The translations under genes and the position numbers were made by a program. The notes under the pieces were generated by a model. That model was not told the DNA's origin. It did no database searches and worked only from the letters and a program-made list of their open reading frames with translations. 64,000 nucleotides of DNA from an uncultured virus (IMG/VR IMGVR_UViG_3300021089_000003). Taxonomy: Duplodnaviria > Heunggongvirae > Uroviricota > Caudoviricetes. The stretch lies in the IMG/VR virus record IMGVR_UViG_3300021089_000003; one strand, given 5' to 3'. Below are positions 2,017 to 44,829 of this stretch, piece after piece; positions within the stretch are counted from its first letter, which is position 1, and the number at the start of each line of letters is the position of its first letter.

Positions 2017-2589
2017 ATGCCTGTAATGGAAATTTACACACAAATTAACAAGCCCGACTGGGTGCATCAAAATGACACTTGGTTGCCTTGCTTAAAGTCC
2101 ACGACAGTGGACCATAAAGAAGCAAAAAAACAAACCTTGTTAATAACTCACATCAAAGCTATAGAGCACTACAAGTATTCCCTTGAGCCATTGTTCGATC
2201 AAAAGGTCATATGCGTAGGTTCTAAAACTTACGATAGACTTCATGAGATGGGATTCAAACATATAGACTGGCGCCCCCGCGCCGAAGAAATTCGGATCGT
2301 GTCGCGAGACACAGGAGATATTACATGGTTAAGGGGAGACAAATGGGCACGAGATTTTTCACACATACAAAAAGTTACAACAATCCAAACATACAAAAGC
2401 GAATCGCACAAAACTAACATTAAAAAAATATTAAAGATGAGTCCAGACATATTGCACGTATACAGCAATACAGTATTAAAAGAATTTGAAATAAGAAGTT
2501 GGCCTACAACACTTTTAAACCACACTCAGAGTTGTGATCCAGAACGAGCACTGTGGAAAGAAACAAAAGTATTTGATCCTAATGTATAG
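2017..2589 (+). CDS. hemD: Uroporphyrinogen-III synthase (HemD)-like protein
   Basis: VICVGSKTYDRLHEMGF, ITWLRGD, IQTYKS and DILHVYSNTVLKEF match the order and spacing of HemD motifs; short and divergent; start may be 2026. Confidence 0.55.
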   Translation: MPVMEIYTQINKPDWVHQNDTWLPCLKSTTVDHKEAKKQTLLITHIKAIEHYKYSLEPLFDQKVICVGSKTYDRLHEMGFKHIDWRPRAEEIRIVSRDTGDITWLRGDKWARDFSHIQKVTTIQTYKSESHKTNIKKILKMSPDILHVYSNTVLKEFEIRSWPTTLLNHTQSCDPERALWKETKVFDPNV

Positions 2590-2975
2590 TGAATGAACTT
2601 CGTTCATTCAAGTTGGTCTTCGACCCACTGTTTATCCTATTAATTTGTTACGAAGTAACTTGCATCATGCAGATAGTTCAACCATACTTCTCCCAAAACG
2701 GGAGAAGCACAGTCATCATGCGAGATGAGCCTGCCATTTTGTGCAAAGAGATTTTTTACGGAGGCGGTAACCCGACAACCCCCTACTCAGAACTTCTATA
2801 GTTACGGGAGATTATTAATTCTACACAAATCAAACTAATAATCTTGGTGTTGTATCTTTTTCACAGAGCACCTTCTTTATGTAATGTGCAACACATCAGT
2901 ATCTAACCGCACAAATTGGCGGCTTCAAGATGAATCGAGCTCCCTCGATTAAACGGAGTTGCTATATTGTTATTT
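2590..2975 (-). ncRNA. Large structured non-coding element (candidate ncRNA and/or replication origin)
   Basis: At least 8 hairpins in ~390 nt of intergenic DNA; several stems extend only via G-U pairs on the minus strand; three C(GAA)G mini-hairpins at 2590-2659. Confidence 0.7.
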
Positions 2976-2978
2976 TGG

Positions 2979-3521
2979 TTATATGCCTTGAGTTGATAAT
3001 TGTGCAACTTGTGATTTATTAAGTTGCCAAAAGGAATCAAATTCTGTAAAAACCCAGTGTGTATTAGATTTATTGTGAGTATAAAGAACATGACTAGCCA
3101 TAGTTAACCTAACCTGGCGTTCTGGTGACGTCAATTTGGTTTCGAAGCACACATACCTACCTTTACGGTTAAATTTCATTGCTAGGATGTTAAAATCATT
3201 ATTTTGTGCTGAATCTAATGTTTGTTCTAACCACTCATCTAGTTTAAGAACAGGTTTATTCCATATAAGCTGATGAAAAGGAAATTCAGAATAGTTTTTA
3301 CATTCCATATTGAAATGATTCCACGTGTCAGGAGGTATTATGTCGCTTTTTGCTCCGCGGATTTGTCCTTCGGACAAAGTGTCCTTACGGACCGCGTTGG
3401 CTCCGCCAACAAATGCACCACTTGCCGGTACCCTGATAAAAGACAGCTGATATAAATCAGACAAGAAATTTGCCATTTCTCTTTCAAATCCTTTTCCTTT
3501 ATTTTTACTCTTGCTTGCCAT
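2979..3521 (-). CDS. Holliday junction resolvase, Hjc-like PD-(D/E)XK nuclease
   Basis: SKNKGKGFEREMANFL, RVPASGA, SDIIPP and MECKNY motifs. Confidence 0.8.
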   Translation of the reverse strand: MASKSKNKGKGFEREMANFLSDLYQLSFIRVPASGAFVGGANAVRKDTLSEGQIRGAKSDIIPPDTWNHFNMECKNYSEFPFHQLIWNKPVLKLDEWLEQTLDSAQNNDFNILAMKFNRKGRYVCFETKLTSPERQVRLTMASHVLYTHNKSNTHWVFTEFDSFWQLNKSQVAQLSTQGI

Positions 3522-3744
3522 TGTTAATTGTTTTTAATAATTTCCTATCATTTTTTGCTTTATGATATTCATCATGAAGTTCTTTTCTTCGTTTCCTTGC
3601 TAATATACGTATCGTTCCAAGTGCTCGTCTGGCATCTATTTTTGGAATTTTACTTTTCTTTTTAGCAAATAACTCATTATTTTTAAAGTAATCTAAGTAT
3701 GCTTTAGTTAGTTTATCGTGTGTATCATCTTCCTGTTGGCTCAT
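3505..3744 (-). CDS. Small basic helical protein (histone H1/Hc1-like DNA-binding)
   Basis: ARRALGTIRILARKRRKEL; start moved to ATG 3744, which follows GGAGG. Confidence 0.5.
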   Translation of the reverse strand: MSQQEDDTHDKLTKAYLDYFKNNELFAKKKSKIPKIDARRALGTIRILARKRRKELHDEYHKAKNDRKLLKTINNGKQE

Positions 3745-5512
3745 AAACCTCCATATCGTTAGCGTATGACGTAAATCCATTTTCTTTTATTACTTTAAGT
3801 ACATTATTCACACGACCTATTAATTCATCTTTATGACTTATAAGGAATATATTTTTACTTCTTTCCCTACTCATCTTTTTAAGAATTGCTAAAGAACTTT
3901 CTACTCCAGCTACATCCATACCACTATCTATTAATTCATCTATAAACAATAAATTAATTTGTTGATATAAATTTTCCCAAACATCTCTAAATGCAAAACT
4001 TAATCCTAATATTAATCTATTTCTTTCACCTCTACTTAAATTATCAAAGTCTAAATCTTGTCCTAATTGTGTTATTTCTACAGATAAATCATTTTTAAAT
4101 GTAACAATATGAGGTAAACCTAATTGATCTAAATATTTCATTAATCTACTATTAAGGAATCCTAAATTTTGATCTATAATTTTTTTTCTAATAAAACTGT
4201 CTTTGTTAGTTAATAACTTCATTAAAAATTCTTGGTGTTCTTTTAGTGTTTGCATAGTATTAACATTATTCCAATTAATTTCTTGTACAGCCTGATTTGT
4301 AAGTTCAGATATTTGATCAACATAAGGATTTTTATCCAAATATTTTGTTTTAAGATTTGATTTTAAATTTTCTAAATGTTGTTTATGCTCATATGCATCA
4401 TCAACAACTTCATAAAACGTTTCAGGTTTAGTTCCTGCATTTCCTAATTTTCCTATTTCATTTTCAACTTTACTTAATTTTATACTTAATTCTATAACAT
4501 AACTATTTGCTTCACCATATTCTTCTTCTAATTTTTTCTGCAAATCTCTTACTTTGTCTATTGGTAAATCTTGACCACAAGCATAACATATAGCTTCTTG
4601 ATGTAAACCGTCTAAATCTATATCTATTTTCTTTGCAACTTTGTCTGATTGTTCAATTGTAGATTCATAATTTTCAACATCTGTTTGTAATTGCATTATT
4701 TTGTCATTAAGTTTATTCCAAGATTCTAATTCTTTATGCAATTTTAATTCTTTTTCAATATCCACAGATTCTAATTTTTTAATAGTGTCTTGCATATCTT
4801 TTAAATCTACTTGCTTTTGCGTTTCCCACGCTTTAGATTTATGCGTAAGTGATATTATTGTTTCCTCAATTCTATCATTACTAATTTTAATTTGTTCTAA
4901 TCTTGCAGTTTCTAATGCAATTTCTTCTTTCATTCCTTTAACTTTTTCTTTAAGTATAGCCGCCTTTTCAGACAATAATGTTATACCTAATAATTGTTCT
5001 ATTATATCCTGTTGTTCTGTATGATGTAAACTTAAAAAAGGTTGTGTATATGTGTTTAAAGCAACAATATGTTTAAACATCCTTGAACTTATACCCAGCA
5101 TACGGCTTATATCTTCTTGTGTTTTTCTGCTGTCTCCTTGTGCATCTTCGGACATTTCTTGTTCTGTATCATTTACATAATACTTCAGTATGTTTGGTTT
5201 TCGTCCACGTTCTATTCTATATTTTGTAGATTCTTTTTCAAAAGTTATTGTAACCACCATATTTTTATTATTGGTTTTGTTAACTAAATTATCTCTTTTA
5301 ATTTTAGTTAATGCTTCTCCAAATAATGCATAACTTAAAGCATTTACAATGGTTGTTTTACCTGTACCGTTTCTACTTCCAGCATCATCACCACCCATAT
5401 CAAGATTTTCTCCTAATACTAATGTTAATAATTGTTGTTGAAAATTTATTGCTTGGGTTTGTTGTCCCACGCTCATGAAATTTTTTACTGTCAGGTTATT
5501 AATTTTAATCAT
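3725..5512 (-). CDS. gp46: Recombination endonuclease subunit gp46 (SbcC/Rad50 ATPase)
   Basis: Walker A NGTGKTT, zinc hook CYAC, signature LSRGE, Walker B LLFIDE, H-loop ISHK. Confidence 0.95.
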   Translation of the reverse strand: MIKINNLTVKNFMSVGQQTQAINFQQQLLTLVLGENLDMGGDDAGSRNGTGKTTIVNALSYALFGEALTKIKRDNLVNKTNNKNMVVTITFEKESTKYRIERGRKPNILKYYVNDTEQEMSEDAQGDSRKTQEDISRMLGISSRMFKHIVALNTYTQPFLSLHHTEQQDIIEQLLGITLLSEKAAILKEKVKGMKEEIALETARLEQIKISNDRIEETIISLTHKSKAWETQKQVDLKDMQDTIKKLESVDIEKELKLHKELESWNKLNDKIMQLQTDVENYESTIEQSDKVAKKIDIDLDGLHQEAICYACGQDLPIDKVRDLQKKLEEEYGEANSYVIELSIKLSKVENEIGKLGNAGTKPETFYEVVDDAYEHKQHLENLKSNLKTKYLDKNPYVDQISELTNQAVQEINWNNVNTMQTLKEHQEFLMKLLTNKDSFIRKKIIDQNLGFLNSRLMKYLDQLGLPHIVTFKNDLSVEITQLGQDLDFDNLSRGERNRLILGLSFAFRDVWENLYQQINLLFIDELIDSGMDVAGVESSLAILKKMSRERSKNIFLISHKDELIGRVNNVLKVIKENGFTSYANDMEVYEPTGR

Positions 5513-6516
5513 TACAAGTCTCTATAAATTGACAACAATACTTTTTTATCATAGTTGTCAGAATCAATTGCTTCTATTTCTTTAGATACAATTTGATCCA
5601 CAGATTCAAATTTTGTAACATCCAAATCTGTATGAATTTCTTCATCTTTCTTACTAGGTATTAATACAATTTCTCTACAATGATACTCCTTCATGAAATT
5701 TTCTTTAATAAAACTTGCTTCTTCATAACTAATATCTACATCCAAACTTACTCTAAGATGCATTTTTGGTTTCATTATGTCTTTTGTTTTATCTAATAAT
5801 TCACTTAATTTAACATTTTTATATTTTGGACAATTCCACCAATTAATATATTCGGGTTCTTTACCCCATTCTAAAAACATCATTCCTCTGTCATTGTCAT
5901 CTACATCTGCGTAATTGTGTGGCATAGCATTACCAATATAAGTTATATTTTTAGCTGTTTGTCTTTTATGAAAGTGTCCCGAAAATACATACTCTTGATT
6001 TTTGAAATTAGCAGGCATTAATTCTCCAGTGTCTGGCATTTCAATCATAGCGTTCATTAAGAAATGAGGTAATTCAAAATGACCAAACATATATTTGGCT
6101 TTTATTTTGGTTACTTTTTTCCATTCATCACCTATCATCCATGGAACCATAGTTACCTCTCCTATAGTAGTGACTTCATTAACAATAGTAATACCTGGAA
6201 TAAATTTTCCAAATTCTACAGAATGAATGTCTCGTTTATCTTTAAAGTATAAATCGTGATTGCCCGGAAAAAAATAAAAATTTTTAAAAGCCTTACCTAA
6301 TTTTTCTAAACTTCTTAAAGAAGCGTCCATAGTTGTTAAATTTAATGAATTTCTATTATGGTGCCAATCACCACAAAACATTCCTGTTTCACAACCCCGT
6401 TCTTTGGCTTGTTCTATATACCAATCTATAAATTCTTCGCAATCGTTATTATGAATTTTTGAATTTGATTTTAGTCCAAAATGAATGTCCGTGAATACTG
6501 CTAATTTTTTAAACAA
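5512..6516 (-). CDS. gp47: Recombination endonuclease subunit gp47 (SbcD/Mre11)
   Basis: DIHFG, GDWHH, GNHD and SGHFH phosphoesterase motifs. Confidence 0.95.
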   Translation of the reverse strand: MFKKLAVFTDIHFGLKSNSKIHNNDCEEFIDWYIEQAKERGCETGMFCGDWHHNRNSLNLTTMDASLRSLEKLGKAFKNFYFFPGNHDLYFKDKRDIHSVEFGKFIPGITIVNEVTTIGEVTMVPWMIGDEWKKVTKIKAKYMFGHFELPHFLMNAMIEMPDTGELMPANFKNQEYVFSGHFHKRQTAKNITYIGNAMPHNYADVDDNDRGMMFLEWGKEPEYINWWNCPKYKNVKLSELLDKTKDIMKPKMHLRVSLDVDISYEEASFIKENFMKEYHCREIVLIPSKKDEEIHTDLDVTKFESVDQIVSKEIEAIDSDNYDKKVLLSIYRDL

Positions 6517-6578: not shown

Positions 6579-7430
6579 TTAACGTTTTTTTTTCTTAACC
6601 GGTTTCTTTGTAGGAGTTGGTGGAGGTGGTGTTCCGGGTGCTGTATTGGACGTCTGAGCTTGTCTGGTGCTACTAGGCATCATATTATTCATTTCCAATA
6701 TGTCATCTCTAATGTTTTGATTTCGTTTTTCGATATTAATAATTCGAACAAATGAATTTGTAACTGCCGCTGTATAGTATGCAAAAGGATTATTAGATTT
6801 TGATTCATCAAATTGTAAACCTATTTGTGCTAATTGTAATATAGCTTGTCCTTGCATTTCATCATTATAAGTGTAGCCTCTTACATTACCTCTAGTAGAA
6901 TAACGTTCACAAAGTTTCATCCACATTTGTGCTAATCTTGTAGTAACTTTACCGCTTTCTTTATTAAATTTACCATTATGTAATCCGCCTTCCCAATGAC
7001 TTTTTCCTACACATACCAAATTACCAGTTTCGTTATATTTCCAATGTTGAAATGGTGGAAAATTTACTTTAACTTTTGTATCTGCAATGGTTCTAGGATT
7101 TCTTCTACGTCCAGGTTCTTCTGGAATATGATTGTATGTCATTACTCTGAATACTAAATCATCTTTAAGTATTTTTTTATAATTTATTTCACAATCACTA
7201 TATCTTATTTTTGGATTAATTTTCTTTTGTTTTTCATACTCTTGTTGGCATAGTCTTTTAGCTTTATTACGTTTAGCTTGGGCAATAGTTCTTACGTTAA
7301 TTTTCTCTATAAATGGTACTATTAAGTCGTATTGGGAGTGATTATCAGTAGGAAATGTGCAATAACTGACCTTAGATTTGTGTATTTCTGATAATAGATC
7401 CTTATTGTTTAGATAATTTACTTTTTTCAT
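6579..7430 (-). CDS. gp55: Late-transcription sigma factor (T4 gp55-like)
   Basis: VNYLNNKDLL, GYTYNDEM, FDESKSNNPFAYYT and IEKRNQNIRD motifs; adjacent to gp47/gp46 as in T4. Confidence 0.9.
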   Translation of the reverse strand: MKKVNYLNNKDLLSEIHKSKVSYCTFPTDNHSQYDLIVPFIEKINVRTIAQAKRNKAKRLCQQEYEKQKKINPKIRYSDCEINYKKILKDDLVFRVMTYNHIPEEPGRRRNPRTIADTKVKVNFPPFQHWKYNETGNLVCVGKSHWEGGLHNGKFNKESGKVTTRLAQMWMKLCERYSTRGNVRGYTYNDEMQGQAILQLAQIGLQFDESKSNNPFAYYTAAVTNSFVRIINIEKRNQNIRDDILEMNNMMPSSTRQAQTSNTAPGTPPPPTPTKKPVKKKKR

Positions 7431-7454
7431 AGGGTTCCTTAATAATTAGTCTAC

Positions 7455-7483
7455 ATTATAAACATAGTAGTTAATTTTGTCAA
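7455..7483 (-). promoter_or_regulatory. Consensus sigma70 promoter for the gp55-like gene
   Basis: TTGACA-17 nt-TATAAT on the minus strand. Confidence 0.85.
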
Positions 7484-7490
7484 CTAAATA
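7470..7490 (+). promoter_or_regulatory. Late promoter (GTTAATT-N8-TAAATA) for the baseplate operon
   Basis: TAAATA at 7485-7490, then an AGGAG SD and ATG 7507. Confidence 0.65.
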
Positions 7491-7506
7491 TTTGCATAGG
7501 AGCATT

Positions 7507-8442
7507 ATGGCATTCGAGCACAGTGACAATATAAAAAATCAGGTAAGCAAAGTAACATCTTCAGACTACACTGACGGTTTAAAGGATGGAATTAAACTTA
7601 ACAATAAAGCTAATAGTCTTATAGATAGCGTTAAAGACGGTGCAAGTTCTGTTATTGGAAAGTATAAAAGAACTGTTAATTCAGTTCTTTCGCAAATATT
7701 AGATGGAGTACCATTTAAGAAATTAATCACAGATGCTAGAACTATTACTAAATCTGGTGAACAAGATTGGAGAGTAAGATTAAGTTTACCAACTCAATAT
7801 CGAAGTATGTTTGGTAAAAATGATCTTTTAGGACCTTTATTAGATACAAATGGTTTAGTATTTCCTACAAATCCAACAGTACTTGTTTCACAAGAAGCAA
7901 ATTATAATTCATTACATCCTGTTCATACAAATTATCCTTTTTGGGCTTATCAAAATAGTCAAGTAGGACAAATTACTGTTACTGCAAATTTTCCTGTACA
8001 AAATTCTTTAGAAGCTAGGTATTGGGTAGCTTGTATACATTACTTAAGAAGTATAACAAAAATGAATTATGGTACAGGACCAGGTGCTGGAGAACCACCT
8101 CCAGTAGTAAAATTTAATGGGTACGGTGATTATGTTTTTAAAAATGTACCTGTTGTAGTTACAAGTTTTCAATTTGATATGCCACAAGATGTAGATTATA
8201 TTAGTTGTGGATTTACAGACAACCCTGCTTCTAATAATCCAGCATCTTTTGGAGGTAATCCACATGAAGCTACTGTAGGAAGTGAAGGTGCCTCTCAATC
8301 AGGGCCATCTGCTTGGGCGCCTGTAACAAGTTTATTAACAGTATCAATTGTACCACAATACAGCAGAAGAGATGTTTCTAATTTTGATTTTAGAAAATTT
8401 GTTAAAGGTGAGTACGGAAAAAGTGATACAGGATTTATTTAA
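7507..8442 (+). CDS. Baseplate/tail-tube initiator-like protein (gp48/gp54-like)
   Basis: GLVFPTNP, HPVHTNYPF, PPPVVKFNGYGDYVFKNVPVVVTSF; start moved to the ATG after the SD. Confidence 0.6.
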   Translation: MAFEHSDNIKNQVSKVTSSDYTDGLKDGIKLNNKANSLIDSVKDGASSVIGKYKRTVNSVLSQILDGVPFKKLITDARTITKSGEQDWRVRLSLPTQYRSMFGKNDLLGPLLDTNGLVFPTNPTVLVSQEANYNSLHPVHTNYPFWAYQNSQVGQITVTANFPVQNSLEARYWVACIHYLRSITKMNYGTGPGAGEPPPVVKFNGYGDYVFKNVPVVVTSFQFDMPQDVDYISCGFTDNPASNNPASFGGNPHEATVGSEGASQSGPSAWAPVTSLLTVSIVPQYSRRDVSNFDFRKFVKGEYGKSDTGFI

Positions 8443-16900: not shown

Positions 16901-17348
16901 AATATTATTTGGATCTCAATCTGAAACAGACTTACAAGCTTCTTTTAAAATTGTTAAAAATGCAGAAGAAGTTACAAATGATAGTGATATTAAAAGTAGA
17001 GTGCTAACAGCCATTGGAGAATTCTTTTCATTAGATAATTGGGATTTTGGCGAAACATTTTACTTTTCAGAATTGAGTACATATGTTATGAATGAATTAT
17101 CTCCAGACATTTCAACTTTCATCATTGTTCCTAATGAATCATCTCAAAGTTTTGGTAGCTTATACGAAGTAAAATCTGAAAACGATGAAATTTTTGTTAG
17201 CGGAGCAACGTTAGATAATATTGAAATTATAGATGCCGTGACAGCGGCTAAAATTAAAGCATCTGGCAAAGTTGTGTCAACTACATCCTCAACCAGTACT
17301 GGAGTGACAAGTAATACAACTGGGACCAGCACTGGAAGTGGATACTAA
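13905..17348 (+). CDS. gp6: Baseplate wedge gp6-like
   Basis: SYDFDTIRRTLINYL, FNDYIESSE, ENFLELAERRESV, YYTQNRMITGEDY. Confidence 0.85.
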   Translation: MSSTNRQNRLLLTEDWQRVYQSFRNAEFKSYDFDTIRRTLINYLRQNYPEDFNDYIESSEYLALVDMIAFLGQNIAFRIDLNARENFLELAERRESVLRLARLLSYNARRNQAANGILKIDAISTTEAIVDSNNLNLSGQTVTWNDPSNTNWYEQFIKVLNSALPVNEKFGKPVKKDTIDSIPTNTYRLNSIGLEVPVFNYSKNVDGRNADFEIVSTTTEESSIIEEAPLSGRAVSMIHRDDGRGSGSNNTGFFMHFRQGVLDLGNFSVTTPSSNQAINIDAININDTDVWLYSTDTNGNEQTLWTKLSATEGNNVVYNSTIKSIKNIYSAITKTDDRVTLQFSDGTFGNLPQGTFKVYYRTSDNRSFRIVPDDMQNVQADIDYVSENGKSEVLTISLSLKYTVDNSTASETNTSIRANAPSTYYTQNRMITGEDYNISPMAVNQEILKIKSVNRVSSGVSRYFDLIDSTGKYSNTNLYGNDGIIYKQEIDDLGTFTFTTRTDIEGNIINTIEPGLSTKRVYNFYTDKFPKILLSDINPIWTQVTKATNQSTGNLQDANATKYQVGTYTASQLKYIDAGALCKFEAPEGYHFMSDGTLMAGAADHAGATTYKWSGVVSVSTDGTTDLADGSGAIKFNDVIPSTAILTQIIPKFNKYLSSDVKTQLIDQIFAYKTFGLRYDLTTRKWKLIDENNLNLYGTFSTGKTGDTSNAQLDASWLLKFTNNGETYTMTSRGMRNVFESDKEIRFFYDSADRNFDYKSGKILQDKISVLSINTAPDVTTPLNNEVAFDITKEYRNPDGYVDSKKIELTHYDSDQDGIVDNPTAFDDIVAPSINSSTKYIFQKKYTSNNIEEWRYINATTENIFVKQNNSSIGAYSTYTDDSIIYLIDVDAFKIVNGTNNTLTDTTNYKVHVGRDKLKFQYVHTVDGNTRIDASSTNIMDLYMVTKTFDTNFRQWLNGTITTKPLPPSSDALYTSYSTQLNSIKSISDEIIYHTVKYKILFGSQSETDLQASFKIVKNAEEVTNDSDIKSRVLTAIGEFFSLDNWDFGETFYFSELSTYVMNELSPDISTFIIVPNESSQSFGSLYEVKSENDEIFVSGATLDNIEIIDAVTAAKIKASGKVVSTTSSTSTGVTSNTTGTSTGSGY

Positions 17349-20300
17349 TGGCATACGACAAAGATCAAAAAGAATTTCCATTACCTACAGGAGATGAAAC
17401 AAACTCTCAACGTAAGACGTCTGAGTTTTTGCCTAAATATTTTAGAACACCTGTAAATGAAAAATTCCTTCATAGTACTTTAGATCAATTATTATCCCCC
17501 GGGTCGGTACAAAAGTTAACTGCTTTTTATGGTAGAAAGACTAGTAAAGCACATACTACTAGTGATGTTTATGTACCTGAAGTATCAACGGACAGAGAAA
17601 ATTATAAATTAGAACCTGCTACAATAATTAAAGATGATTTAGAACAAACAGTTTTTTATAAAGATTATATTGACTATATTAATCAAGTTAAAGCATTAGG
17701 CGGTAATATTGATGATCATAGTATTCTTAATAAACAAGAATTTTATGCTTGGTCTCCTCATATAGATTGGGATAAGTTTTATAATTTTAGAGAATACTAT
17801 TGGATGCCTTATGGTCCATTAACTGTTTCAATTGCTGGACAACAACAAAATATTACAAGTACCTATACTGTAGAAGTTAAAAATAATGTAGACAGCTATG
17901 CGTATTTGTTTACCCCTGATGGATTAACTCAAAATCCAAATTTAAAATTATATAGAGGTCAAACTTATATTTTTGATATATCTACAGCAGGTTTACCTTT
18001 TACAATTAAAACTGTTAGATCATTAAGTGATGATCATCTTTATACTAATGGCGTTTCAGCACAAAAAATAGAATCGGGTCTTGTTGCTTTTCAAGTTCCA
18101 GAATCAGCACCAGACTTATTATATTATGGTGCAAGTAATGATATTAATGTATTTGGTGAATTAAGAATTTACAATATAAGTGAAAATACTTACATAAATG
18201 TAGAAAAAGATGTTATAGGTAAAAAAACTTATACTCTTAATGATGGAACAGAACTTTCAAATGGAATGAAAGTTAATTTTACTGGTAATGTAACACCTAC
18301 AAAATATGCAACAGACGATTGGTATGTAGAAGGAGTAGGTACTGCTATTCAATTAATAAATGAAAAAGATTTAGAAATTACAAGCATTTATTCTAAAACT
18401 TTTGAAGTTCCTTTTGATACACAAAACTTTGATAGAGTAGGTTTTGGAACAGCTACAACTTATGCAATTACAAAAGATTATGTTGTAATTAATAAAGGAT
18501 CTTTAGATAAAAATCCCTGGTCACGTTATAATAGATGGACCCATAAATCAGTAATAGAAGAAAGTGCAAAAGTTAATGGAGAAATTCCTACATTTGATGA
18601 AAGTTTAAGAGCTAAACGTCCTATTATAGAGTTTGAAGCAGGATTAAAATTACACCAATATGGAACTAAAGCTAAAGATAGTATTGATTTAATTGATACA
18701 GCAACAACTGACGTAATGTCAACTATAGAAGGTTCTACTGGATATTATGCAGATGGCGTTTTGCTTGTAGATGGTATGAGAGTATTGTTTACTGCTGATA
18801 CAGATATAACTGTTAATAATAAAATTTATACTGTAAAAATTATAACTATAACTTCGAATGGCGTTGCCACAAAACAAATTGCTCTTCAAGAAGCCACAGA
18901 TACTACACCAACTACAAATGATGTTGTGTTAATTAAAAATGGAACAACAAACATTGGTAAAATGTATTATTATGATGGTTCAAAATGGAAAATAACACAA
19001 TCAAAAACTAAAGTAAATCAATCTCCATTATTTGATTTATTTGATGACAATGGTATTAGTTATTCAGATACAACTACATATTCAAGTACTAATTTTGTAG
19101 GAAATAAAATTTTTAGTTATAAAGAAGGAACTGGAACTAATGATACAGAACTAGGATTTCCATTAACATATCAAAGTGTTACTAATATGGGAGATATTGT
19201 TTTTAATTTTAATTTAATAAATGAAACATTTTCTTATCAATTAGTAGATGAATTAACAACGGTTAATACTAATTCAGGTTTATTAAGAAAATATTCTAAT
19301 TTAACTATTTTCGAAGTTGTATCTGGTTGGGAAACTGCTGACGTTAAAATTAGTCAAAAAGTTATTAGACAATATGATGTGTCTACGCAAGTAAATGATT
19401 TTGCAGTAGATGTGTATGAAAGAAGTGGAGATCTAAATGATTTAGATGTTAAAGTTTTTGTTAATCATAAAATTAAAAAAGTAACAACTGATTATGCTAT
19501 TAATAGAATTAATGGTATTGCATATATTAGATTTACAAAAGATTTAACAGCAGGTGATATAGTTATTTTAAGAACTAAAAGTGCTACAAAGAAAAATACA
19601 AATGGATATTATGAATTTCCTAAAAATTTAGAATCTAACCCATTAAACAACAAAATATCTACATTTACACTTGGACAAGTAGGCGACCATGTTAATTCTA
19701 TTGTGGAAGAAGTCCCGGGATTTGAAGGAACTTCACCAGGTGGCAATAATTTAAGAGACTTGGGTAATATTTCTAAGTATGGTAGAAAATTTTTACAACA
19801 TTCAGGATTAACAAATCTTGCTATATATCATCTTTGCAATAAAGAAACTAACATAATTAAATCAATAAGATATTCTCAAAATGAATACAGTAAATTTAAA
19901 AGACAATTTTTAGAACAAGCTAAAGATTTAGGAATGGACGGAACACCAGCTAATATGGTTGACGAAGTTCTACGAAGAATTAATAAAGATAAAAATAAAA
20001 GTATGCCTTTTTATTTTACTGATATGTTAGGATCAGGTGGTTCTAAAAAAATATCAATTACAGTAGGAGATCCAGGCAATCCATATTACGCATTAACAAA
20101 TGTATTTTCATTAAGTGAATTAAGTGATAAGTCTGTATTAGTTTATAAAAATGATATACAGTTATTGCATGGTGCTGATTATGTGTTTAACAGTGAAGGT
20201 TTCATTCAAATAAAAACAACTTTACTAAAAGATGATAAACTTATTATTGTAGAATATGATACAACAAACGGATCATATATTCCTGCAACCCCATCTAAAT

Positions 20301-23300
20301 TAGGTTTATATCCTAAAACTATGCCGGCAATATATGCTGACACTACAGTTGTTACACCAGCGGCAGGAATGAATGTAATTCAAGGACATGATGGTAGTAT
20401 AGAAGTAGCTTTCAATGATTATAGAGATGATATAATATTAGAATTAGAAAAACGAATCTATAATAATATTAAAGTTGCTTATGATGAAGAAATATTTGAT
20501 ATTCATGATTTTATTCCAGGACATTATAGAAAAACAGATTATTCTTTAGATGCTATTAATAAATCTTTATTAACAGATTTTACTAATTGGTTATCTTATA
20601 CAGGCAATATTGATTATACAGAAAACACATATCAAACAACATATGGTAGTGATCCATTTGTTTTTAATTATGGAAATATGTCTAGCCATGATAAAAAACC
20701 ATTATTAGGTTGGTGGAGAGGCGTTTATAAACAAGCATATGATACAGATAGACCACATACCCATCCTTGGGAAATGTTAGGTTTTACAGAAAAACCAACT
20801 TGGTTTGATACTGTTTATGGTGCGGCTCCTTATACTAGTGATAATTTAATTTTGTGGCAAGACTTACAAGATGGAATTATTCGAGAACCTAATAAAAATA
20901 TTGTAATTAAAGAAAATTATAAAAGACCTGATTTACTTAAACATATACCTGTTAATTCTTCAGGACTTTTAGTAAGTCCACACGATAGTAATTTTTCACA
21001 AGAATATGTTGCTCATTTAACTAGAAGTCCATTTAAATTTGGCGACCACGCTCCAGTAGAAAATGCTTGGCGAAGAAGTTCAGATTATCGTTTTGCTGTT
21101 ATAACATCTTGGATGTTAAATCAACCTAGTCATGTTATTACAATTGCTTGGGACAGATCAAGAGTTATAAGAAATACTGCAAAACAACTTGTATATAAAG
21201 ATACAGGATCTAGAATTAAATTAGCTGATCTTAAATTTCCAAATTCTGTAAGTGATGAAAATAAAATTCTTACAGCAGGATTAGTTAATTATATTTACGA
21301 ATACGTAGAAACAGATTTATTAACAAATTACTCTAATTACAGAAATAATGTTAAAAAAATTACTAACCAATTAGCATTTAAAGTTCGGGGTTATACTAAA
21401 AAAGATAAATTTAAATTGTTATTAGATAGTAGAACTCCTTTAAACACTGGTAACGTATTTGTTCCTGAAGAAAATTATAATATAATTCTTAATACAAGTG
21501 CTCCTATAAATGTAGTAACTTATAGTGGATTAATTATAGAAAAATTGGCGTCTGGTTTTACGATTAAAGGTTATGATAGAAATGATCCAACTATAAAATA
21601 TTTTGCTCCTATTAAAAAACAAGCCGACGCTGTTATTAGAATAGGAGGTGTAAGTGCTTCTTTTGTTAATTGGGGAGAAAATAAAAGATATGATATAGGA
21701 ATGATTGCAAAATATGGCGATGATTATTATTCTACAAAAGAACAACATATATCTAGTACAGTATTTGATGGCACAAAATTTATTAAATTACAAGAATTAC
21801 CTATTGAAGGAGGAGCTTCTGCATACTTACGTACTAATTTTGAAAGTACTGCCTCAGAAATCGCATATGGTACTTTGTTTAGAGAAATTCAAGACGTTTT
21901 TGATTTTATTCTTGGTTATGGAAAATATCTTGAATCTTTAGGATTTATATTTGATGAATTTAATAGAGATATTAAAGCAGTTGCTAATTGGCAATTAAGT
22001 GCTAAAGAATTTTTATATTGGACAACACAAGGTTGGGCAGAAGGGTCAGTAATATCTTTAAGTCCATTAGCTAATAAATTAAAATTAAAAACTAGTTATT
22101 GTGTAGGTGATAATGTATTTGATAATTTTTATGATTATACGTTGTTCAAAGAAGATGGAACTAAATTAGATAAAGAATTTGTAAGAGTAGTAAAACAGTA
22201 TAATGATTATGAAATAATAACAAAAAATACTGTTAACGGAATTTATTATGCTAAAATTCCATTAGTACAAAAAGAACACGTAGTTGTAATAGATAATAAA
22301 ACAATATTCAGTGATATAATTTATGATATAGAATCTGGATATAGACAAGATAGATTAAAAGTTCTTGGCTATGTTACAGCAGACTGGACAGGTGGATTAA
22401 ACGTTCCAGGATTCATTTATGATCAAGCTAATGTGATTGAATGGTCACCTTATACTGATTATGTAATGAGTGATATTATAAAACATAAAGAATTTTATTA
22501 TACTGCTAAAAGTAAAATAAAAGGTAGTTCAACGTTTACTGATTCAGATTGGGATAAATTAGATGGCAAACCTGTACCTGATTTATTTCCTAACTTTGAA
22601 TATAAAACTAATCAATTTGCAGACTTTTTTGATTTAGATACAGATAATTTTGATTCTACTCAACAAAGAATGGCTCAACATTTAATAGGTTATCAAAAAA
22701 GACCTTTTTTACAAAATATTATTAATGATGATGTTTCACAATATAAATTTTATCAAGGATACATTCAGGAAAAAGGAACTAAAAATGTATTAACTAAATT
22801 ATTTGATGCATTATCGTCTGCAGATAAAGAAAGTGTAGACTTTTTTGAAGAATGGGCAATTAGAAAAGGACATTATGGTGTAAGTCAAGGATTTGAAGAA
22901 GTTGAATACATATTAGATGAAGGCAAATTTAGATCTAATCCACAACCTTTTGAATTAACAAATACTATAGATCCTTTAGCAACTGATTTAGTTATTAGAC
23001 AGAAAGATAGTGACGTATATCTTAAACCTGAAAATTATACACATAAACCTTTTCCAACAAAATATGAAAGTACTCCATATTTGCCAACTGCTGGATATGT
23101 AGATCCTAGTGACGTTAAATTTATTGTAGCAAAATATGATGACTTATTAAATTTAGATACAACTGTATTAAAACAAGGACATTATATATGGGTAGGAAAT
23201 TATAAAAATGATTGGGAAGTGTTCAAATTTTCCAATACTCAAGCAAAATTAAGTAAAATAGAAAAGTCAGGTGATTTAATTGTAGTTACTACACAAAATA

Positions 23301-26300
23301 CTGCAAATGTAATTGTTGGAGAAATTTTTGCTATACGTGAAGGAACTTCCACATATATTTTAAAAGCAAATAAAGTAGAATTAAATGTAATAACTTGTGA
23401 TGCAAAAACAGGAATACAAGCCAAAGACCCTGCTGTAGGATATGTAAGTCAATTTAAATCATCTAGAATTGCAGGTATTACAGATGTAAATTCAAAAATT
23501 ATTGATGCAGGTTTACAAGATAATGAAAAGTTCTGGGTAGATAAAAACGATAATAATAAATGGTCCGTATTGAATAATAGTTTTGTATACAAAACACATC
23601 AAGAAATTTCTAATCCTAATAATGTAGCAAATACTCAATTTGGTAAAGTATTAGCTAGTAATGATGCAAATAATATTTTAGTTGTTGGTGCACCAAATGA
23701 TTCGGATGGAAGAGTGTTTGTTTATAAAAGAGGAGGAGATAATTCAATTAATAATTTATTTCAAGTTTTAGAAACACCACCACAAGATCCTGCGTTAAAC
23801 AAATTAGACGTATATGATGCAGGTGCAAAATTTGGATCAAGCGTAGCAATAAGTCCAGATGGAAAATATATTATAGTAGGAGCACCGGAAGCCTCTAATG
23901 TTAGAACTTATTATAAAGGAGAGTATGACGTAGCAAATTCATATACAATAGAAGATATTGTAAAATACAAAGAACAATTATGGAAAGTTGTAAATCCGAT
24001 ATTACCTGAAGATCCTTCAGTAGACTTTACAACATTTGACAGTCATACGTTTGCTAAAGAAACAACATATAATTCTATAACAGGAAATTATACACCATTA
24101 ACACAAATAATTTTAGGAAATTATATTTTTACAAATGCTACTACAGATCATTTATTAATTAGAGCATCACTAGATCAATATCAAGGTACAAATATAGGAG
24201 ATAAATTACAATTATCTTGGAATAAATGGAATACTTTTGTTCCACCATCTGGAAGTTCATACGAACCATTTAATGGTTATAATGCTAATGTTACTAACGC
24301 ACTACAAGGTGAACAAACAATTACGCAAAAAGTAGATGAAATATTAAGCATAGATCAAACTCTTAGTGATTTAACAGTAAATGATGTTATTAAGACTGAT
24401 AGTGCAGATGGTACAGTAGCTTGGGTAAACAAAGTAGGTACTCAGTCTTTAATTTATTTGAAAGATGTTAAAGGTAATTTTTCAGCTACAGGAGATTTAT
24501 TATTAGGAACTATAAATGTTGGAACATATCAACGTGTATTTCAAGAAGATATAGATTATTTAGGTGGCTGGTGGAAAATTGATATAGGTACAACAGTTAA
24601 TAATTGGCCTTATGTTTCAGAAACAAATCCATATCTAGTAATATATGATATTATTAGACAAGGAATTAATAGAACAGCATTATCATATTATAATGTTTTA
24701 TCAGGAACTCAAAATGCAGATTTACCGGGTGTTCCAAGAACATCTGAAATGGGTATTTTATCTTATTACAAAACTTATAGTATTGCAGGACAACCTGTCT
24801 TCCAAGGTTTAGTTACTGATCAAAGATTCTTTTTTAGATTAGGTACTGCATTTAATACTAAAGTTGTTGGAAATACTATTAATGGTTGGTTAAACACAAT
24901 AAGAGATTCAAATAATATAGTGTTTGATCCAAGTGTAATGGGATTAAACTTTAGCGATATTAATAAAGAGCTTACAATAAACGGTATTTGGAATGGTTAC
25001 ATAACTGTAGATGCAGAAGCAGATAACTTAGGTAATTTTTATATACCAACAGTAGGTAGTATTGTTAGAGATCAAACTACAATGAAAACTGCTGAAGTTA
25101 CTTTTGTTAAAACAATTGACTTTAATAAAATACAATTATTCTTAAAAGATGCCACAGGTGCTTTCAAAAAAGGATTAGACGCTGGCGAAACAAGTGACAT
25201 TTATTTAATAGGAACTCCAGATAGAAAAATTGGAACTTTAAGAGACGCAAGATTAGATGTTAATGGTCAAAGTGGACCTTATTTTGTATTTGATTCAGGT
25301 AAAACATTAATTTCTACTACTAATACAGATATAGAAGTAAGACATTACGATAAAGAATATTGGTTCTACGATGAACAAATATTAGATGGTATAGCTAGAT
25401 CGGCAAATATTCCTGGAAGTACTAATAAAGATTATCTTCAAGTGTATAATATTTCAGCAGGAGAAGGAGTACAAAGTGGTAATACTAATCAAGGTGCATA
25501 TTCAGTTTATGAAATAGGAACAAATGATTTATTTGCTCATATAGGAACATTTATAGTACCCGATACTAAAAATGATTTAAAAGTAGGTAGTAAAATAGAA
25601 ATAAGAAAAGTAGGAGATGAAACTGTTGCTTATATAGGAGCGTCAGGAAATTTATCATCTACTACTTCTGGAAAAATTTATTTTGTTAAAAGAAGTACTA
25701 CTAAAAATTGGGCACTTTCAACGAATCCTTTGTATATGGGAGAGTTTAATGTAACATTGTCGTATGCTACAGGAGAATATACAATTTATAATTCAGAATT
25801 ATACAAAGCAAAAACAAATCTTGTTGCTGGTGCATGGAATTCAAGTTACTGGGAAAAACAAAGTACAGGTACAGATTATTTAGGATATATTCCTAATGAT
25901 TCAGGAATAACATTAGAAGGAGATTCAACTCTCAATCAAAGTAATTTAGTAATGTTCGGTGATCAATTTGATGTTAATTCTACAGGAACAATTCTTGTAA
26001 CTAATTTATTATACAGCACTGATGCACAAAAAGTTGCTGTATACAGATTACAAGAAGGATATTATTCATATTCACAAACAATTACATCACCTGAGGATTC
26101 ATCTCCTAATATTAATTTTGCAAATAGTGTAGCTATTTCAGAAGATGGAAGTATGCTGTCTATTGGAAGTCCTTTAAAAGATTTTGCTAATGCTGTTGAC
26201 GCCGGAGTAGTTTATACATATTTACAATCAAGTGGTGTTTACACATTAAATCAAAGTTTAAGAAGTCCTGATAGTGAAAATTCAGAAAATTTTGGTTACC

Positions 26301-29300
26301 AATTAGGATTTGATGGAAATACATTGGCAGTTACAAGTCTTAAAGGAGACATAACAATTACTACAGCATTTGATACAACAACTACAATATTTGATACTGG
26401 AGCAACTACATTTTATAAAGTAATGTCTGATAGTGGTGCAGTACATTTATTTGAAAGATCAGGAAATACTTTATTATATGCTGAAAAATTTGTGTACACT
26501 AATGATGGTGCTGTAGAATTCGGACGTAATACATTAATAAATGATAATCATGTTTATATAGGTTTACCTACACTTACATTATCTGATAATAATAAAGGAA
26601 CAGTAGTTGACTTTAGAAAAACTAAAGGCAAATCTAGTTGGATGCAAACAGTAGAAGGTGCTGACCACGTTGAAATTGATAAAATTAAAAGCGTATTCAT
26701 TTATAATAAGGAAACAAATTCTGTTATTTCTAATTTAGATTATATAGATCCTGTATTAGGAAAAATAGCAGGCACAGCCGAACAAGAATTATATTATAAA
26801 ACACATTATGATCCAGCAATTTATAATGTAGGAACTTCAGCTGTAACAATAGATACAAACAATCATTGGGCAGAAGGAGAAGTAGGAAGACTTTGGTGGG
26901 ATTTAAGTACAGTAAGATATTATTATCCTTATCAAGGTAATATTATATTCAATAATAATCATTGGAATAAACAGTTTATTGGTTCATCTGTAGATGTATA
27001 TGAATGGGTAGAGTCAATTTATAAACCTAGTGTCTGGACAGAAATTGCATCTACTAATGAAGGAGACTCTTTAGGAATAAGTGGAACACCTAAGTATGAT
27101 GATACTGTATATGTTACTAGAAATACTTACGACAAAATTGCTCAGACTACAAAACCTAAATATTATTATTGGGTTAAAAATAAACAAAATACACCAGATG
27201 TAGAATTTAGAAGTCTAAGTGCGTTAGCAGTTTCTAAACTTATAGATGATCCTAAAGGACAAGGTTACAAATATATTACATTTTTTGATTCAAATAAATT
27301 TGCGTTAGTTAATTGTGAATCATTATTATCTAATACAGATTCTATTCTTAATGTTCGTTATTGGACAATAGATAATAAAGAACTTAATATTCATAATGAA
27401 TATCAAATTATGACCGAAGGATTATCAACTAGTAAACCTTCTACAGAAATAGAAAAAGTTTGGTATAATAGTTTAATAGGATATGATAAACAAGGAAATA
27501 CTGTACCAGATCCGGGTTTAAGTGATAAACTTAAATATGGAACTTTATATAAACCTAGACAAAGTTGGTTTAAAAATCATCAAGAAGCATTAAAAGAATT
27601 AATAGAAAGAACTAATTCTGTATTGAAACTTAATTTGATTGTGGATGATATAGATTTAACTGATTTATCAAAAGCAGATGTACAACCTACAGCAAATACT
27701 AAACTTTTTGACAAAACTGCAGATGTTGTAGGAGATTTAGCTTTTATAGGAACAAGTACAGTTAAAAAAGCAGAGTTATTACCAACAATTGTAAATGGTA
27801 AAATTACTGGTGTAACTATTCTAAGTAAAGGTAAAGGTTATGTAACTGTACCTACATTAGAAATTTCAGGAAATAGTGGAAGTGGTGCTGTAATAGAATT
27901 AACAATAGATGCTCTAGGACAAGTTGATACTGCAACTGTAAAAATTAACGGTGAAGGATATACATCTAATACAAAAATTATTGTTAGACAATATAGTGTA
28001 CTTGTAAAAAGTGATACAGAACTAGGCGGTAAGTGGGCAATATATGGTTATGATTCAAATTTAAGTTCTTGGAATAGAACATCTTCTCAAAAATACAATG
28101 TTGATCTTTATTGGTCATACATTGATTGGTATGATACAGGATATAATCAATTTACAGCAATAGATTATACTGTTAGTGAATCATATTTGTTAGAATCATT
28201 AGATGATTCAATTGGAGATATTGTAAAAATTGAAAATATAGGTACAGGTGGTTGGCTATTATTAGAAAAAATAGATAACAAACCTAATGTAGATTATACT
28301 GTAAATTATAAAACTATTGGTAGACAAAATGGAACAATTACATTTAAAAATACTTTATATCAATTTGGTTCAAATACTGTAGGTTATGCATCAACTAGTT
28401 ATGATACTGTATTATATGATCGTCAACCTGTTCAAGAAACAAGAATAATATTAGAAACTTTAAGAGATAAAATTTTTATAAATGATTTAGAAATATATTA
28501 TAATGATCTTTTCTTTGCTAGTTTAAGATACGCATTAAGCGAAAATAAATTAACAGATTGGGCATTTAAAACAAGTTTTATCAAAGTAAAACATAATGCA
28601 GGTGATCTTAAACAAAAAGCAACTTATCAAAATGACAATCTTTCCGACTTTGAAGAATATATTAAAGAGGTTAAACCATACAAAACTAATATTAGAGAAT
28701 ATGTAAGTTCTTACGAAAAAGTAATACCATCAAGTTCAGTTATAACTGATTTTGATTTACCGGCTAGATATGATGACGAAAATCAAATAACACCTAGTTC
28801 AGCAAAACTTGTAGGGACTGCTTTAACTGGAACAGATACAATTACAAGTTATCCTGATAAACATTGGTTAGAAAATGTAGGATTTAAGATTATATCATTT
28901 AATATAGGAGATAAAGGTAGTGGTTATATTACTCCACCAATAGTTTCAATAACAGGTGGCGGTGGTTCTGGTGCTACAGCTCAAGCATATATTAGTGGAG
29001 GCAAAGTAACTTCAGTTATAATTCTTAAAGAAGGATTAGGTTATTTAACAGCACCTACAGTAACTTTACAAGGAGGAATTAAAGATGCAACTACAGGAAC
29101 AGTTGCTAAAGTTAGTGCTGTATTAGGTAAGTCTTTAGTTAAAGCAACTCATCTTACTGTTAAATTTGACAGAACATCTGGAACATATTTAATAACATCA
29201 TTAGCAAGAACAGAAACGTTTGCAGGAAATAATTCTGTGTTAGATTATTATTTAAAATGGCCGTTAGATTTAAGAAGAAATACAATCAAAGTAACTGTTA

Positions 29301-44651: not shown

Positions 44652-44829
44652 TTATAAATGTATAGTAACAAAAGGTAAAAAGGAAGTAATATGGCATTAT
44701 AGTTTGCCATATAAAATGATAGAGGAAGAAGTTGATCAACATTATAAAGAAGGTGCTGACGCAGTAGAATTAGAAATGATTACACAAACAGAGTTTGATG
44801 ATTTATTACCAAAGGAAGAAGATGTATAA
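44638..44829 (+). CDS. Small acidic protein (63 aa)
   Basis: AAGGA SD; fills the gap between two radical SAM genes and overlaps both. Confidence 0.55.
   Translation: MELCNYKCIVTKGKKEVIWHYSLPYKMIEEEVDQHYKEGADAVELEMITQTEFDDLLPKEEDV

Follow-up and report, generated by a model that had tools for sequence, protein, structure and literature searches.

What does a phage keep in the widest gap between its genes? The question is raised by a 64,000-nucleotide (nt) stretch of DNA from an uncultured member of the Caudoviricetes (IMG/VR record IMGVR_UViG_3300021089_000003), which we analysed at its full length and call the window. In this AT-rich DNA (30.7% GC), two convergent genes, an open reading frame (ORF) on the plus strand (2017-2589) and one on the minus strand (2979-3521), leave 389 nt between them at 2590-2978. 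Once a spurious ORF of 70 amino acids (aa) is set aside, this is the largest non-coding stretch of the window, the runner-up having 151 nt, as an initial annotation made from the sequence alone had pointed out. This annotation had further proposed that the gap, packed with eight stems, encodes a possibly undescribed phage RNA on the minus strand, i.e., on the strand of the operon that precedes it and that carries gp47-like, gp46-like, basic protein and nuclease genes. We found that a real and conserved structured RNA is almost certainly present on that strand, at 2647-2965, and that it probably represents an undescribed family. The complete picture, in which it is a new stand-alone structured non-coding RNA (ncRNA) of phages, probably a scaffold for a ribonucleoprotein (RNP), is the one toward which we lean by a modest degree; the trans-acting scaffold role, taken alone, is put forward tentatively.

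A Conserved Structured RNA on the Minus Strand

The conserved element runs on the minus strand from a 5' motif, AUAGCAAC, to a 3' UUCG-type hairpin, and measures 319 nt in the window. It is more strongly constrained than the genes around it. Indeed, when the window is compared with a relative of about 83% overall DNA identity (L008), identity per 100 nt over 2667-2966 reaches 97, 92 and 92%, versus 65-83% in the flanking coding sequence, and in a closer relative (L006) the RNA is 99% identical, versus 94.7% overall. The minus-strand fold has an energy of -118.9 kcal/mol, versus -90.9 +/- 4.9 kcal/mol in 100 shuffles (z -5.75, with none of the 100 equalling it); the plus-strand fold gives z -4.13.

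All eight stems listed by the initial annotation exist, at coordinates that are exact or 1-7 nt off. Six of them belong to the conserved RNA, i.e., H13 (2647-2659), H12 (2680-2714, which includes the cited 2687-2707), H6 (2810-2843), H5 (2846-2872), P2 (2905-2924) and P1 (2934-2949). The two outermost hairpins (2590-2610 and 2612-2628, together 2590-2628) lie outside it, and the picture of a single RNA holding all eight stems stands only for the inner six. Their sequence is not conserved in L008, which has other hairpins in their stead, and the hairpin at 2590-2610 scores like a terminator of the plus-strand gene. The strand had been assigned from four stems extended through G-U pairs, which correspond to H12, H6, P2 and H8. 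Helices have lower energies in the sense than in the antisense orientation (-16.8 versus -12.2 kcal/mol for H12, -12.1 versus -10.9 for H6, -6.2 versus -5.6 for H9, and -5.0 versus -3.8 for H8), and G-U pairs are frequent, accounting for 39/276, 28/213, 18/95 and 12/64 pairs of the best runs in the H12, H6, H9 and H8 test; the closing pair of H5 alternates between G-U and G-C. The RNA therefore lies on the minus strand of the window, the same strand as the gp47-gp46-basic protein-nuclease operon, and on both counts the initial annotation was right.

Covariation and Architecture

Distant homologues with 69-77% identity were recovered with short patterns taken from the conserved block. A 22-base pattern from H5 matched at least 120 IMG/VR stretches; among the matches listed, 114 had sufficient flank and gave 71 unique sequences. 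Grouping below 93% identity gave 25 clusters. The phages that carry the family are for the most part uncultured and marine. The RNA is 311-400 nt long, with a median of 335 nt (64 sequences). Sixteen loci that share only a 16- or 17-mer were judged chance matches because neither BLAST nor a covariance model finds homology in them.

Covariation supports at least seven helices and two pseudoknots, H8/H9 and PK1, and the compensatory changes looked for among homologues were found in alignment-based and alignment-free tests alike. With 16 sequences, RNAalifold returned 50 pairs, 17 of them compensatory. On one alignment (A2), the drawn structure has 45 pairs with 90.7% of cells paired, versus 39-48% for slid partners, and 17 compensatory pairs versus 4-6, a result that none of 500 shuffles equalled. 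On another (A5), where H8 is treated as a pseudoknot, 95.9% of the cells of 28 pairs are paired versus 38-54%, and 17 of the 28 pairs are compensatory versus 2-5; by helix, compensatory pairs number 9/10 in H6, 4/5 in H9 (100% of cells paired) and 2/5 in H8 (97.9% paired). Because MAFFT misaligns loops of variable length, we added an alignment-free test, in which each 5' strand is paired with its own 3' strand or with that of another sequence (2000 permutations). PK1, with 22 distinct combinations, gives -10.2 kcal/mol for cognate strands (mean run of 8.6 bp) versus -4.7 kcal/mol (5.7 bp) for non-cognate ones. The corresponding energies are -4.2 versus -1.9 kcal/mol for the outer stem of H5, -12.1 versus -5.7 for H6, -16.8 versus -9.8 for H12 (27 distinct combinations) and -4.9 versus -0.8 for H13 (18 distinct combinations). 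For all of these, and for H9, no permutation out of 2000 did as well; for H8, 39 did. H11, a helix that RNAalifold places around the 3' domain, was rejected with 1051/2000 permutations.

From 5' to 3', the RNA consists of a 5' domain, H5, H6 with PK1, the H8/H9 pseudoknot, an optional insertion hairpin, box 1, H12, box 2 and H13. The 5' domain is closed by H3, whose strands GCAAC (2958-2962) and GUUGC (2888-2892) recur in 58 of 64 motif-bearing unique sequences and are replaced by GUAAC/GUUAC in four and by GCAAU/GUUGC in two; L012 has CGAAC/GUUCG. The domain contains P1 (2934-2949), a hairpin present at this place in 64/64 unique sequences, with stems and tetraloops that differ between members. 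Two designs of the domain exist: 43 of the 64 unique sequences have type 1, and the other 21 have type 2, like the window. In type 2, the P2 hairpin is flanked by a helix, CAUC-UUGA / UYAG-AUACU-GRUG (2894-2933 with P2), whose variants, read by eye, include CAUC/GAUG, CGUC/GGCG and CACC/GGUG. Next comes H5, with its near-invariant core UGCUCUGUGAAAAAGAYACAACA; this hairpin served as the anchor of the search, and its search pattern is single-copy in the window, where none is expected by chance. Its outer stem varies (GGUG/CACC, GAUG/CAUC, UAGUG/CACUA, GUAUG/CAUAC), pairs 8-34 and 9-33 are compensatory, and two relatives, L011 and L012, vary in H5.

The long hairpin H6 exposes an apical loop (2822-2829) that pairs with a strand (2738-2745) just 5' of an AUGG to form PK1. 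The two sides change together from member to member, e.g., UGUGA/UCACA, UUGCAA/UUGCAA, UACGA/UCGUA, CUGUUAA/UUAACAG, CUUGAAC/GUUCAAG, UUGUAAG/CUUACAA and CCAUAAG/CUUAUGG, to which reading by eye adds CUAUUAG/UUAAUAG in L011, UUGGUA/UACCAA in L012 and CCAUAUC/GGUAUGG in L195. H9 joins GUAAC (2801-2805) to GUUAC (2767-2771) and H8 joins GGGGG (2779-2783) to CCUCC (2760-2764), with variants GGGAG/CUUCC, AGGGG/CCUCU and CAG/CUG; the strands of the two helices interleave and make an H-type pseudoknot. The 3' part is made of H12, a 15-bp hairpin between the two boxes, and of H13, a hairpin with a UUC(G) loop, which forms the 3' end of the conserved RNA.

These data bear on the explanation according to which there is no RNA here, and the gap holds a DNA element (a replication origin, a recombination hotspot or a homing site) or a small protein gene. 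Such an element would suit a replication/recombination module; in one group of relatives, clade D, the sequence WAGGCW is repeated two or three times upstream, and ORFs of 70 and 62 aa, called mechanically, overlap the region. However, the helices are maintained by compensatory changes, G-U pairs introduce an asymmetry between strands that is not expected of a double-stranded DNA element, and the region is present in RNA libraries. As for a protein, no ORF is conserved, since each of the six frames has at least one stop in 26/26 representatives, and the coding reading was rejected on these stops. Because of the strand asymmetry and the frame analysis, this explanation is largely refuted, and we give it very little chance.

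Boxes That Change Together

Two boxes of the form CUC-NNNNNA and UCU-NNNNNA, 49-64 nt apart, flank H12. In the window they read CUC-GCAUGA (box 1, 2716-2724) and AUCU-GCAUGA (box 2, 2665-2674, 51 nt downstream of box 1), both on the minus strand, and form a direct repeat whose copies vary in concert. Among the matches listed, the hexamer is the same in both boxes in 70/70 unique sequences and occurs in five variants, GCAUGA (45 sequences), ACAUGA (15), ACAUAA (4), GUAUGA (4) and AGAUGA (2). Members found by other means also share a hexamer between their boxes, i.e., ACAGAA in L012, GGUUGA in L195 and GUAA(A)GA in L194 and L200. An A/G position four bases upstream of the hexamer likewise changes in both boxes together. 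The relation between the boxes is thus one of identity and not of complementarity, and in 12 diverse members no third strand complementary to both was found inside the RNA. It is possible that one partner, e.g., a dimeric protein or a repeated target, reads or is read twice; equally possible are a symmetric non-Watson-Crick internal loop or pairing between molecules. A UGAU or GA core is kept in most hexamer variants and could form tandem G-A pairs.

Another box precedes the RNA. AAGGC, at 2979-2989 on the minus strand, overlaps the stop codon of the nuclease gene, and its nucleotides are conserved ahead of the RNA irrespective of the ORF or frame that comes before; GIY-YIG and PDDEXK ORFs alike end in or beside it. 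T4-like members keep one such box, and copies from clade D and from a metagenome-assembled genome (MAG) have two or three WAGGCW boxes before the RNA, about 11-13 nt apart (L169, L088, L122, L194, L200). Promotion of transcription, processing and protein binding are candidate roles for these boxes. As a general phage promoter, WAGGCW was rejected, with 18 and 21 occurrences per strand versus about 45 and 32 expected and none clustered before genes; a cluster at 33.3 kb falls inside a 669-aa ORF. The idea that the clade-D boxes are a promoter for a single-subunit RNA polymerase was dropped: PF00940 was found in none of five records, one of them complete, but it was not found in the control genomes either, which makes this negative uninformative.

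Distribution of the Family

How far does the RNA extend beyond the relatives of the window? A covariance model, R1, was built on the central 124 positions from T4-like members only. It finds L011 (82.5 bits) and L012 (72.9 bits), two GC-rich relatives from which the exact pattern is absent, all clade-D members searched (seven loci, 49.6-67.2 bits), the MAG contig and a scaffold of Terasakiella (L195, 45.7 bits, E value 4e-9), none of which was used to build it, and it gives no match in the 16 loci that share only a short word. Within about 185,000 species genomes, the 22-base pattern occurs in two, the MAG contig and a scaffold of Terasakiella pusilla DSM 6293, and within the 151 genomes searched as a sample of the Terasakiella class, R1 matches only the Terasakiella genome itself. 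The Terasakiella copy (L195 / G007) lies on the 7-kb scaffold 55 with genes for a serine recombinase and an SLT transglycosylase. It is GC-rich, divergent and complete-looking, and keeps H5, H6/PK1, H8/H9 and both boxes. A second, weak R1 match of 29 bits (E value 9e-4) is seen on contig 12 of the same organism.

Cultured phages were searched by blastn with the region and with a clade-D member as queries; 50,697 phage records yielded only matches attributable to chance, none longer than 30 nt. Near gp46 of the cultured phages Phosso and PA5oct, R1 finds nothing significant (L197 at E value 0.16). Sinorhizobium phage Phosso (PV764938.1, L196) has an unannotated gap of about 1 kb (6911-7924) beside a gene named 'Holliday junction resolvase', 1.6 kb downstream of gp46, which folds with z -6.4 on the plus strand and z -4.7 on the minus strand; it matches neither Rfam nor R1 and may hold a separate large ncRNA. 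An unannotated gap of 660 nt also lies near gp46 in PA5oct.

Relation to Known RNAs

Does the RNA belong to a family already described? With Rfam 15 (4,227 models), the whole window gives no match at the gathering score. When E values up to 10 are allowed, 2400-3200 gives four unrelated weak hits, the best being mir-9418 with 18 bits versus a threshold of 82, and eight members from other clades give two unrelated weak hits. No description of the family was found in the full-text literature searched, and the suggestion of an undescribed phage ncRNA is supported. The two kinships that the initial annotation had evoked, with GOLLD/ROOL and with HEARO/OMEGA, are not, as no model of either group matches.

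ROOL and GOLLD are roughly 500-800 nt long and frequently have tRNA genes as neighbours. Like them, the RNA is phage-borne, long, multi-domain and non-coding, with covarying helices and pseudoknots, and forms an independent gene amid phage genes, the function being unknown for all. Unlike them, it measures 311-400 nt, has no tRNA gene in its 64-kb window (none by ARAGORN, nor any transfer-messenger RNA (tmRNA) gene), and shows no match in sequence or structure model. We know of no counterpart of the twin co-varying boxes in ROOL or GOLLD. With HEARO/OMEGA, the RNA has in common a structured RNA of a few hundred nt adjoining a same-strand nuclease gene. However, this nuclease is of the PDDEXK_15 or SegE-like GIY-YIG kind and not IscB/TnpB with RuvC/HNH, no transposon context is seen, and some copies of the RNA have no recognisable nuclease beside them. 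No guide-like variable end was found either, as seven copies, from near-identical to 89% identical, differ by substitutions scattered in loops.

Phages also encode the structured packaging RNA (pRNA) of phi29, two loops of which co-vary through pairing. The covariation of PK1 would fit pairing within or between molecules; the RNA is unlike pRNA in being twice its size, in showing no sequence relation to it, in lying near neither a genome end nor a packaging gene and in occurring in T4-like phages, which package DNA without RNA. A tmRNA was discarded, with no Rfam tmRNA match, as was a group I intron, with no Rfam match and a position between convergent genes rather than within an interrupted gene. 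The RNA is neither a tRNA nor a protein gene, and is not merely a terminator. GOLLD, ROOL and OLE have been studied by cryo-electron microscopy (cryo-EM; PMC12286853). In a survey in which IMG/VR intergenic regions were mined by covariation, Fremin, Bhatt and Kyrpides (2023) reported 8,495 csRNA candidates of DNA viruses, given there as 29-151 nt (PMC10690425). At the sizes stated in that source, none of the candidates can be the whole RNA of about 320 nt.

Gene Context and the Nuclease Link

On the minus strand of the window, the RNA follows genes for a gp47-like phosphoesterase (5512-6516), a gp46-like SMC/AAA ATPase (3725-5512), a 91-aa basic protein (3505-3780) and a 180-aa PDDEXK_15 nuclease (2979-3521; PF24608, E value 3.2e-29; phrog_244, E value 1.2e-22). 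The name of phrog_244 is 'RusA-like Holliday junction resolvase'. No sequence relative of the nuclease was found in the PDB, its structure model is of low confidence (pLDDT 61) and has no Foldseek match at E values up to 0.001, and the 'Hjc-type' label of the initial annotation is putative. The nearest cultured relatives of the gp46-like protein are those of the jumbo phages Phosso, PA5oct (a Pseudomonas phage) and Agrobacterium phage Atu_ph07, with 43-48% identity.

The context was counted, among the matches listed, at 77 loci with at least 900 nt upstream. At 65 of them, gp47, gp46 and the basic protein are followed on the same strand by a SegE-like GIY-YIG gene of 141-150 aa (PF19835 in clades A, B and C, E value 7e-36) and then by the RNA. 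At five, those of the window clade, this slot is taken by PDDEXK_15, again on the same strand, and gp47-gp46-basic protein synteny is thus kept in 70/77 loci. We consider this a non-orthologous replacement, with GIY-YIG (2467-2898 in L074) and PDDEXK_15 (2979-3521 in the window) in the same slot. Two loci of a different phage type (L083 and L133) have an adjoining PDDEXK_15 gene on the opposite strand, beside genes for a DnaB-like helicase and a plastocyanin-like protein. In L083, where the plastocyanin-like gene is near the RNA, an ATE_C domain (arginine-tRNA-protein transferase C-terminal, E value 2.6e-11) is encoded at 978-1712 on the minus strand, +266 to +1000 after the RNA. The last five loci, of clade D, have neither nuclease and show tail-fibre, ParB-like and ABC/GNAT genes with an adjacent ORF of 179-232 aa; one genome of this type is complete, with 31.7 kb and terminal repeats. 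The 179-232-aa protein is conserved, stands head-to-head with the RNA (3259-3798 in L145, 2215-2913 in L088) and has no Pfam or PHROG match.

Does the RNA, then, form a functional pair with the GIY-YIG or PDDEXK nuclease encoded upstream of it in the recombination module, serving as its cofactor, guide or regulator? The nuclease gene lies within about 100-210 nt upstream of the RNA in 72/77 loci (GIY-YIG 65, PDDEXK 7), two unrelated nuclease folds occupy the same slot, and the AAGGC box overlaps the stop codon of either gene. Moreover, the RNA lies downstream at each of the 12 loci that were retrieved with the PDDEXK protein, the least similar at 54% identity, and PDDEXK_15 stands beside it again in the other phage type of L083 and L133. 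On the contrary, near-identical copies have no guide-like variable end, the nucleases are not IscB/TnpB-like and HEARO gives no match, and a recognisable adjacent nuclease is lacking in the five clade-D loci, on the MAG contig (L194) and on the Terasakiella scaffold. The GIY-YIG gene itself is present in 65/65 T4-like loci outside the window clade, and its identity tracks that of gp46 (r 0.88 over 55 pairs; mean 75% versus 66%), which rules out a sporadic free-standing homing endonuclease. It is inherited vertically with gp46, so that the 65 loci amount to about one evolutionary event. A functional pair of this kind is, in our view, unlikely. An RNP with the nuclease or with the basic protein, as suggested by the initial annotation, is conceivable. 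The nuclease link is real as synteny and unproven as function, and the simplest reading is a recombination module with a terminal structure-specific nuclease, replaced once by another fold, and with an RNA gene at its end.

The genes that lie beyond the RNA raise another possibility. On the plus strand of the locus, a T4-type baseplate protein and a 72-aa ORF are followed by a 190-aa ORF (2017-2589), which has no Pfam match. Its structure model (pLDDT 74.5) has uroporphyrinogen-III synthase (HemD) as all ten of its top ten Foldseek hits in the PDB, with E values from 4e-7 to 3e-4, and this HemD-like gene adjoins the RNA in clades W (that of the window), A and C. The RNA could thus act in cis as a riboswitch-like sensor, being a leader in clade D and, in T4-like phages, a gate on antisense read-through into the HemD-like gene, at the 3' end of which it points in clades W, A and C. 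In favour of such a sensor, a same-strand ATE_C-like transferase gene starts about 45 nt after the RNA in L083, same-strand genes come after a terminator-like hairpin in L088, L122 and L145, and the core is large and has invariant unpaired nucleotides, a trait of ligand-binding RNAs. But downstream genes vary: a HemD-like gene is missing from clade B, and the ORFs near the Terasakiella copy all lie on the opposite strand. Nor did we find an alternative terminator/antiterminator pairing, and behind H13 of the T4-like copies no intrinsic terminator stands out. Cobalamin and other riboswitch families were set aside, with no Rfam match and a convergent next gene in the window, although in clade D the RNA does occupy a leader position. 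We regard a cis-acting sensor as improbable.

Presence in RNA Libraries

Eleven marine studies contribute 17 runs that are labelled as RNA and contain parts of 2400-3300. In four runs, each from a different study, contigs cover 2492-3142 (up to 3306 in one run), with at least 99% identity in 10 of 11 pieces, and extend from the RNA into the nuclease ORF. The stretches 2000-2491 and 3307-3800 have no contig cover, a gap that was not counted as a higher abundance of the RNA because the runs were picked by words from 2400-3300 and because contigs lose rare sequence. A sigma-70-like promoter match, the single one on the minus strand, lies at 3078-3107 inside the 3' part of the nuclease gene; such sites are not enriched (one versus a shuffle mean of 5.3). 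Contigs of two studies end just downstream of it, at 3069 and 3071, and an own promoter of the RNA at this place is a weak lead.

A transcript shared with the operon would also be expected if the RNA were only a structured 3' untranslated region, i.e., an element for stabilisation, processing or termination with no role in trans. The RNA does lie directly behind the last same-strand ORF of the operon in 70/77 loci, and the contigs span both. Nevertheless, two pseudoknots and a nucleotide conservation above that of genes go far beyond what stabilising hairpins display, and the RNA is also found outside such operons, in unrelated gene contexts that lack the basic protein. This explanation is decidedly improbable.

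Proposed Role and Significance

That the RNA is a gene of its own is supported by clade D, where in L122 and L169 a separate hairpin and a U-run come after it, and by its presence in unrelated gene contexts. The reading that we favor, a stand-alone structured ncRNA, would work as follows. The gp47-gp46-basic protein-nuclease transcription unit would yield the RNA as its 3' end, or the RNA would be made just behind this unit. It would fold into a compact, knotted core and act in trans as a stable structured RNA, most likely as an RNP scaffold, whose twin boxes would be equivalent contact sites for one partner. This partner may be a dimeric or duplicated protein, or the boxes may form a symmetric non-Watson-Crick motif. 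The nuclease gene upstream would be a part of the recombination module beside the RNA gene and not an RNA-guided partner.

Several points weigh against this reading. The function is inferred from architecture alone. The presence of the nuclease gene at 72/77 loci, in the form of two unrelated folds, is also what a functional nuclease-RNA pair would produce. The 'invariance' of H5 is partly built in because the search pattern sits in this hairpin, and with the failure of H11, the fold of the 3' domain is not fixed by these data. The covariation statistics are our own counts and tool shuffles and not those of R-scape, and since the sequences are related, the shuffle counts are strong indications rather than probabilities. 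The RNA-library contigs are unstranded, have a depth of 2-8 and unmapped ends, and DNA carry-over could contribute to them. Finally, fragments of the RNA may be among the 8,495 csRNAs reported in PMC10690425.

A bolder variant would make the RNA an obligate partner of the adjacent nuclease, with GIY-YIG and PDDEXK as interchangeable 'heads' on one RNA 'body' and the twin boxes as docking or target-recognition sites. We consider it distinctly unlikely; if true, phage recombination or warfare against the host would involve an RNA-dependent nuclease RNP of a new kind. Equally bold is the idea of intermolecular pairing through the boxes or PK1, which would give an oligomer made of RNA alone, as in ROOL/GOLLD.

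Large, knotted and highly conserved RNAs are rare, and have historically turned out to be ribozymes, riboswitches or RNP cores. The RNA described here sits in the recombination module of widespread, uncultured, large marine myoviruses, spans several unrelated phage types and one bacterial mobile element, and reaches an abundance sufficient for assembly from ocean RNA libraries in several studies. Its boxes, changing in parallel, point to a partner or a motif not yet described. The closest relatives of gp46 in culture are only 43-48% identical, and knowledge of the role of the RNA could therefore expose an unknown step of phage DNA metabolism or host takeover in the sea. The family alignment and the model constitute a ready RNA-database entry, and make the RNA tractable for probing and cryo-EM.

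Other Features of the Window

Apart from this locus, the window encodes seven radical-SAM proteins (43659-53579 and 59616-60767) amid phage structural genes; SPASM domains occur in three of these proteins and an HMPTM zinc ribbon in one. The cluster also contains an Asp/Arg beta-hydroxylase-like gene (46399-47052), and the whole is an odd enzyme set for a tail region. At 17348-32029 on the plus strand, flanked by baseplate and tail-fibre genes, lies one ORF of about 4,890 aa. Lastly, a major tropism determinant domain (Mtd_N, E value 4e-9) is found at the N terminus of the protein encoded at 61238-62359 on the minus strand, which is a possible target of a diversity-generating retroelement.

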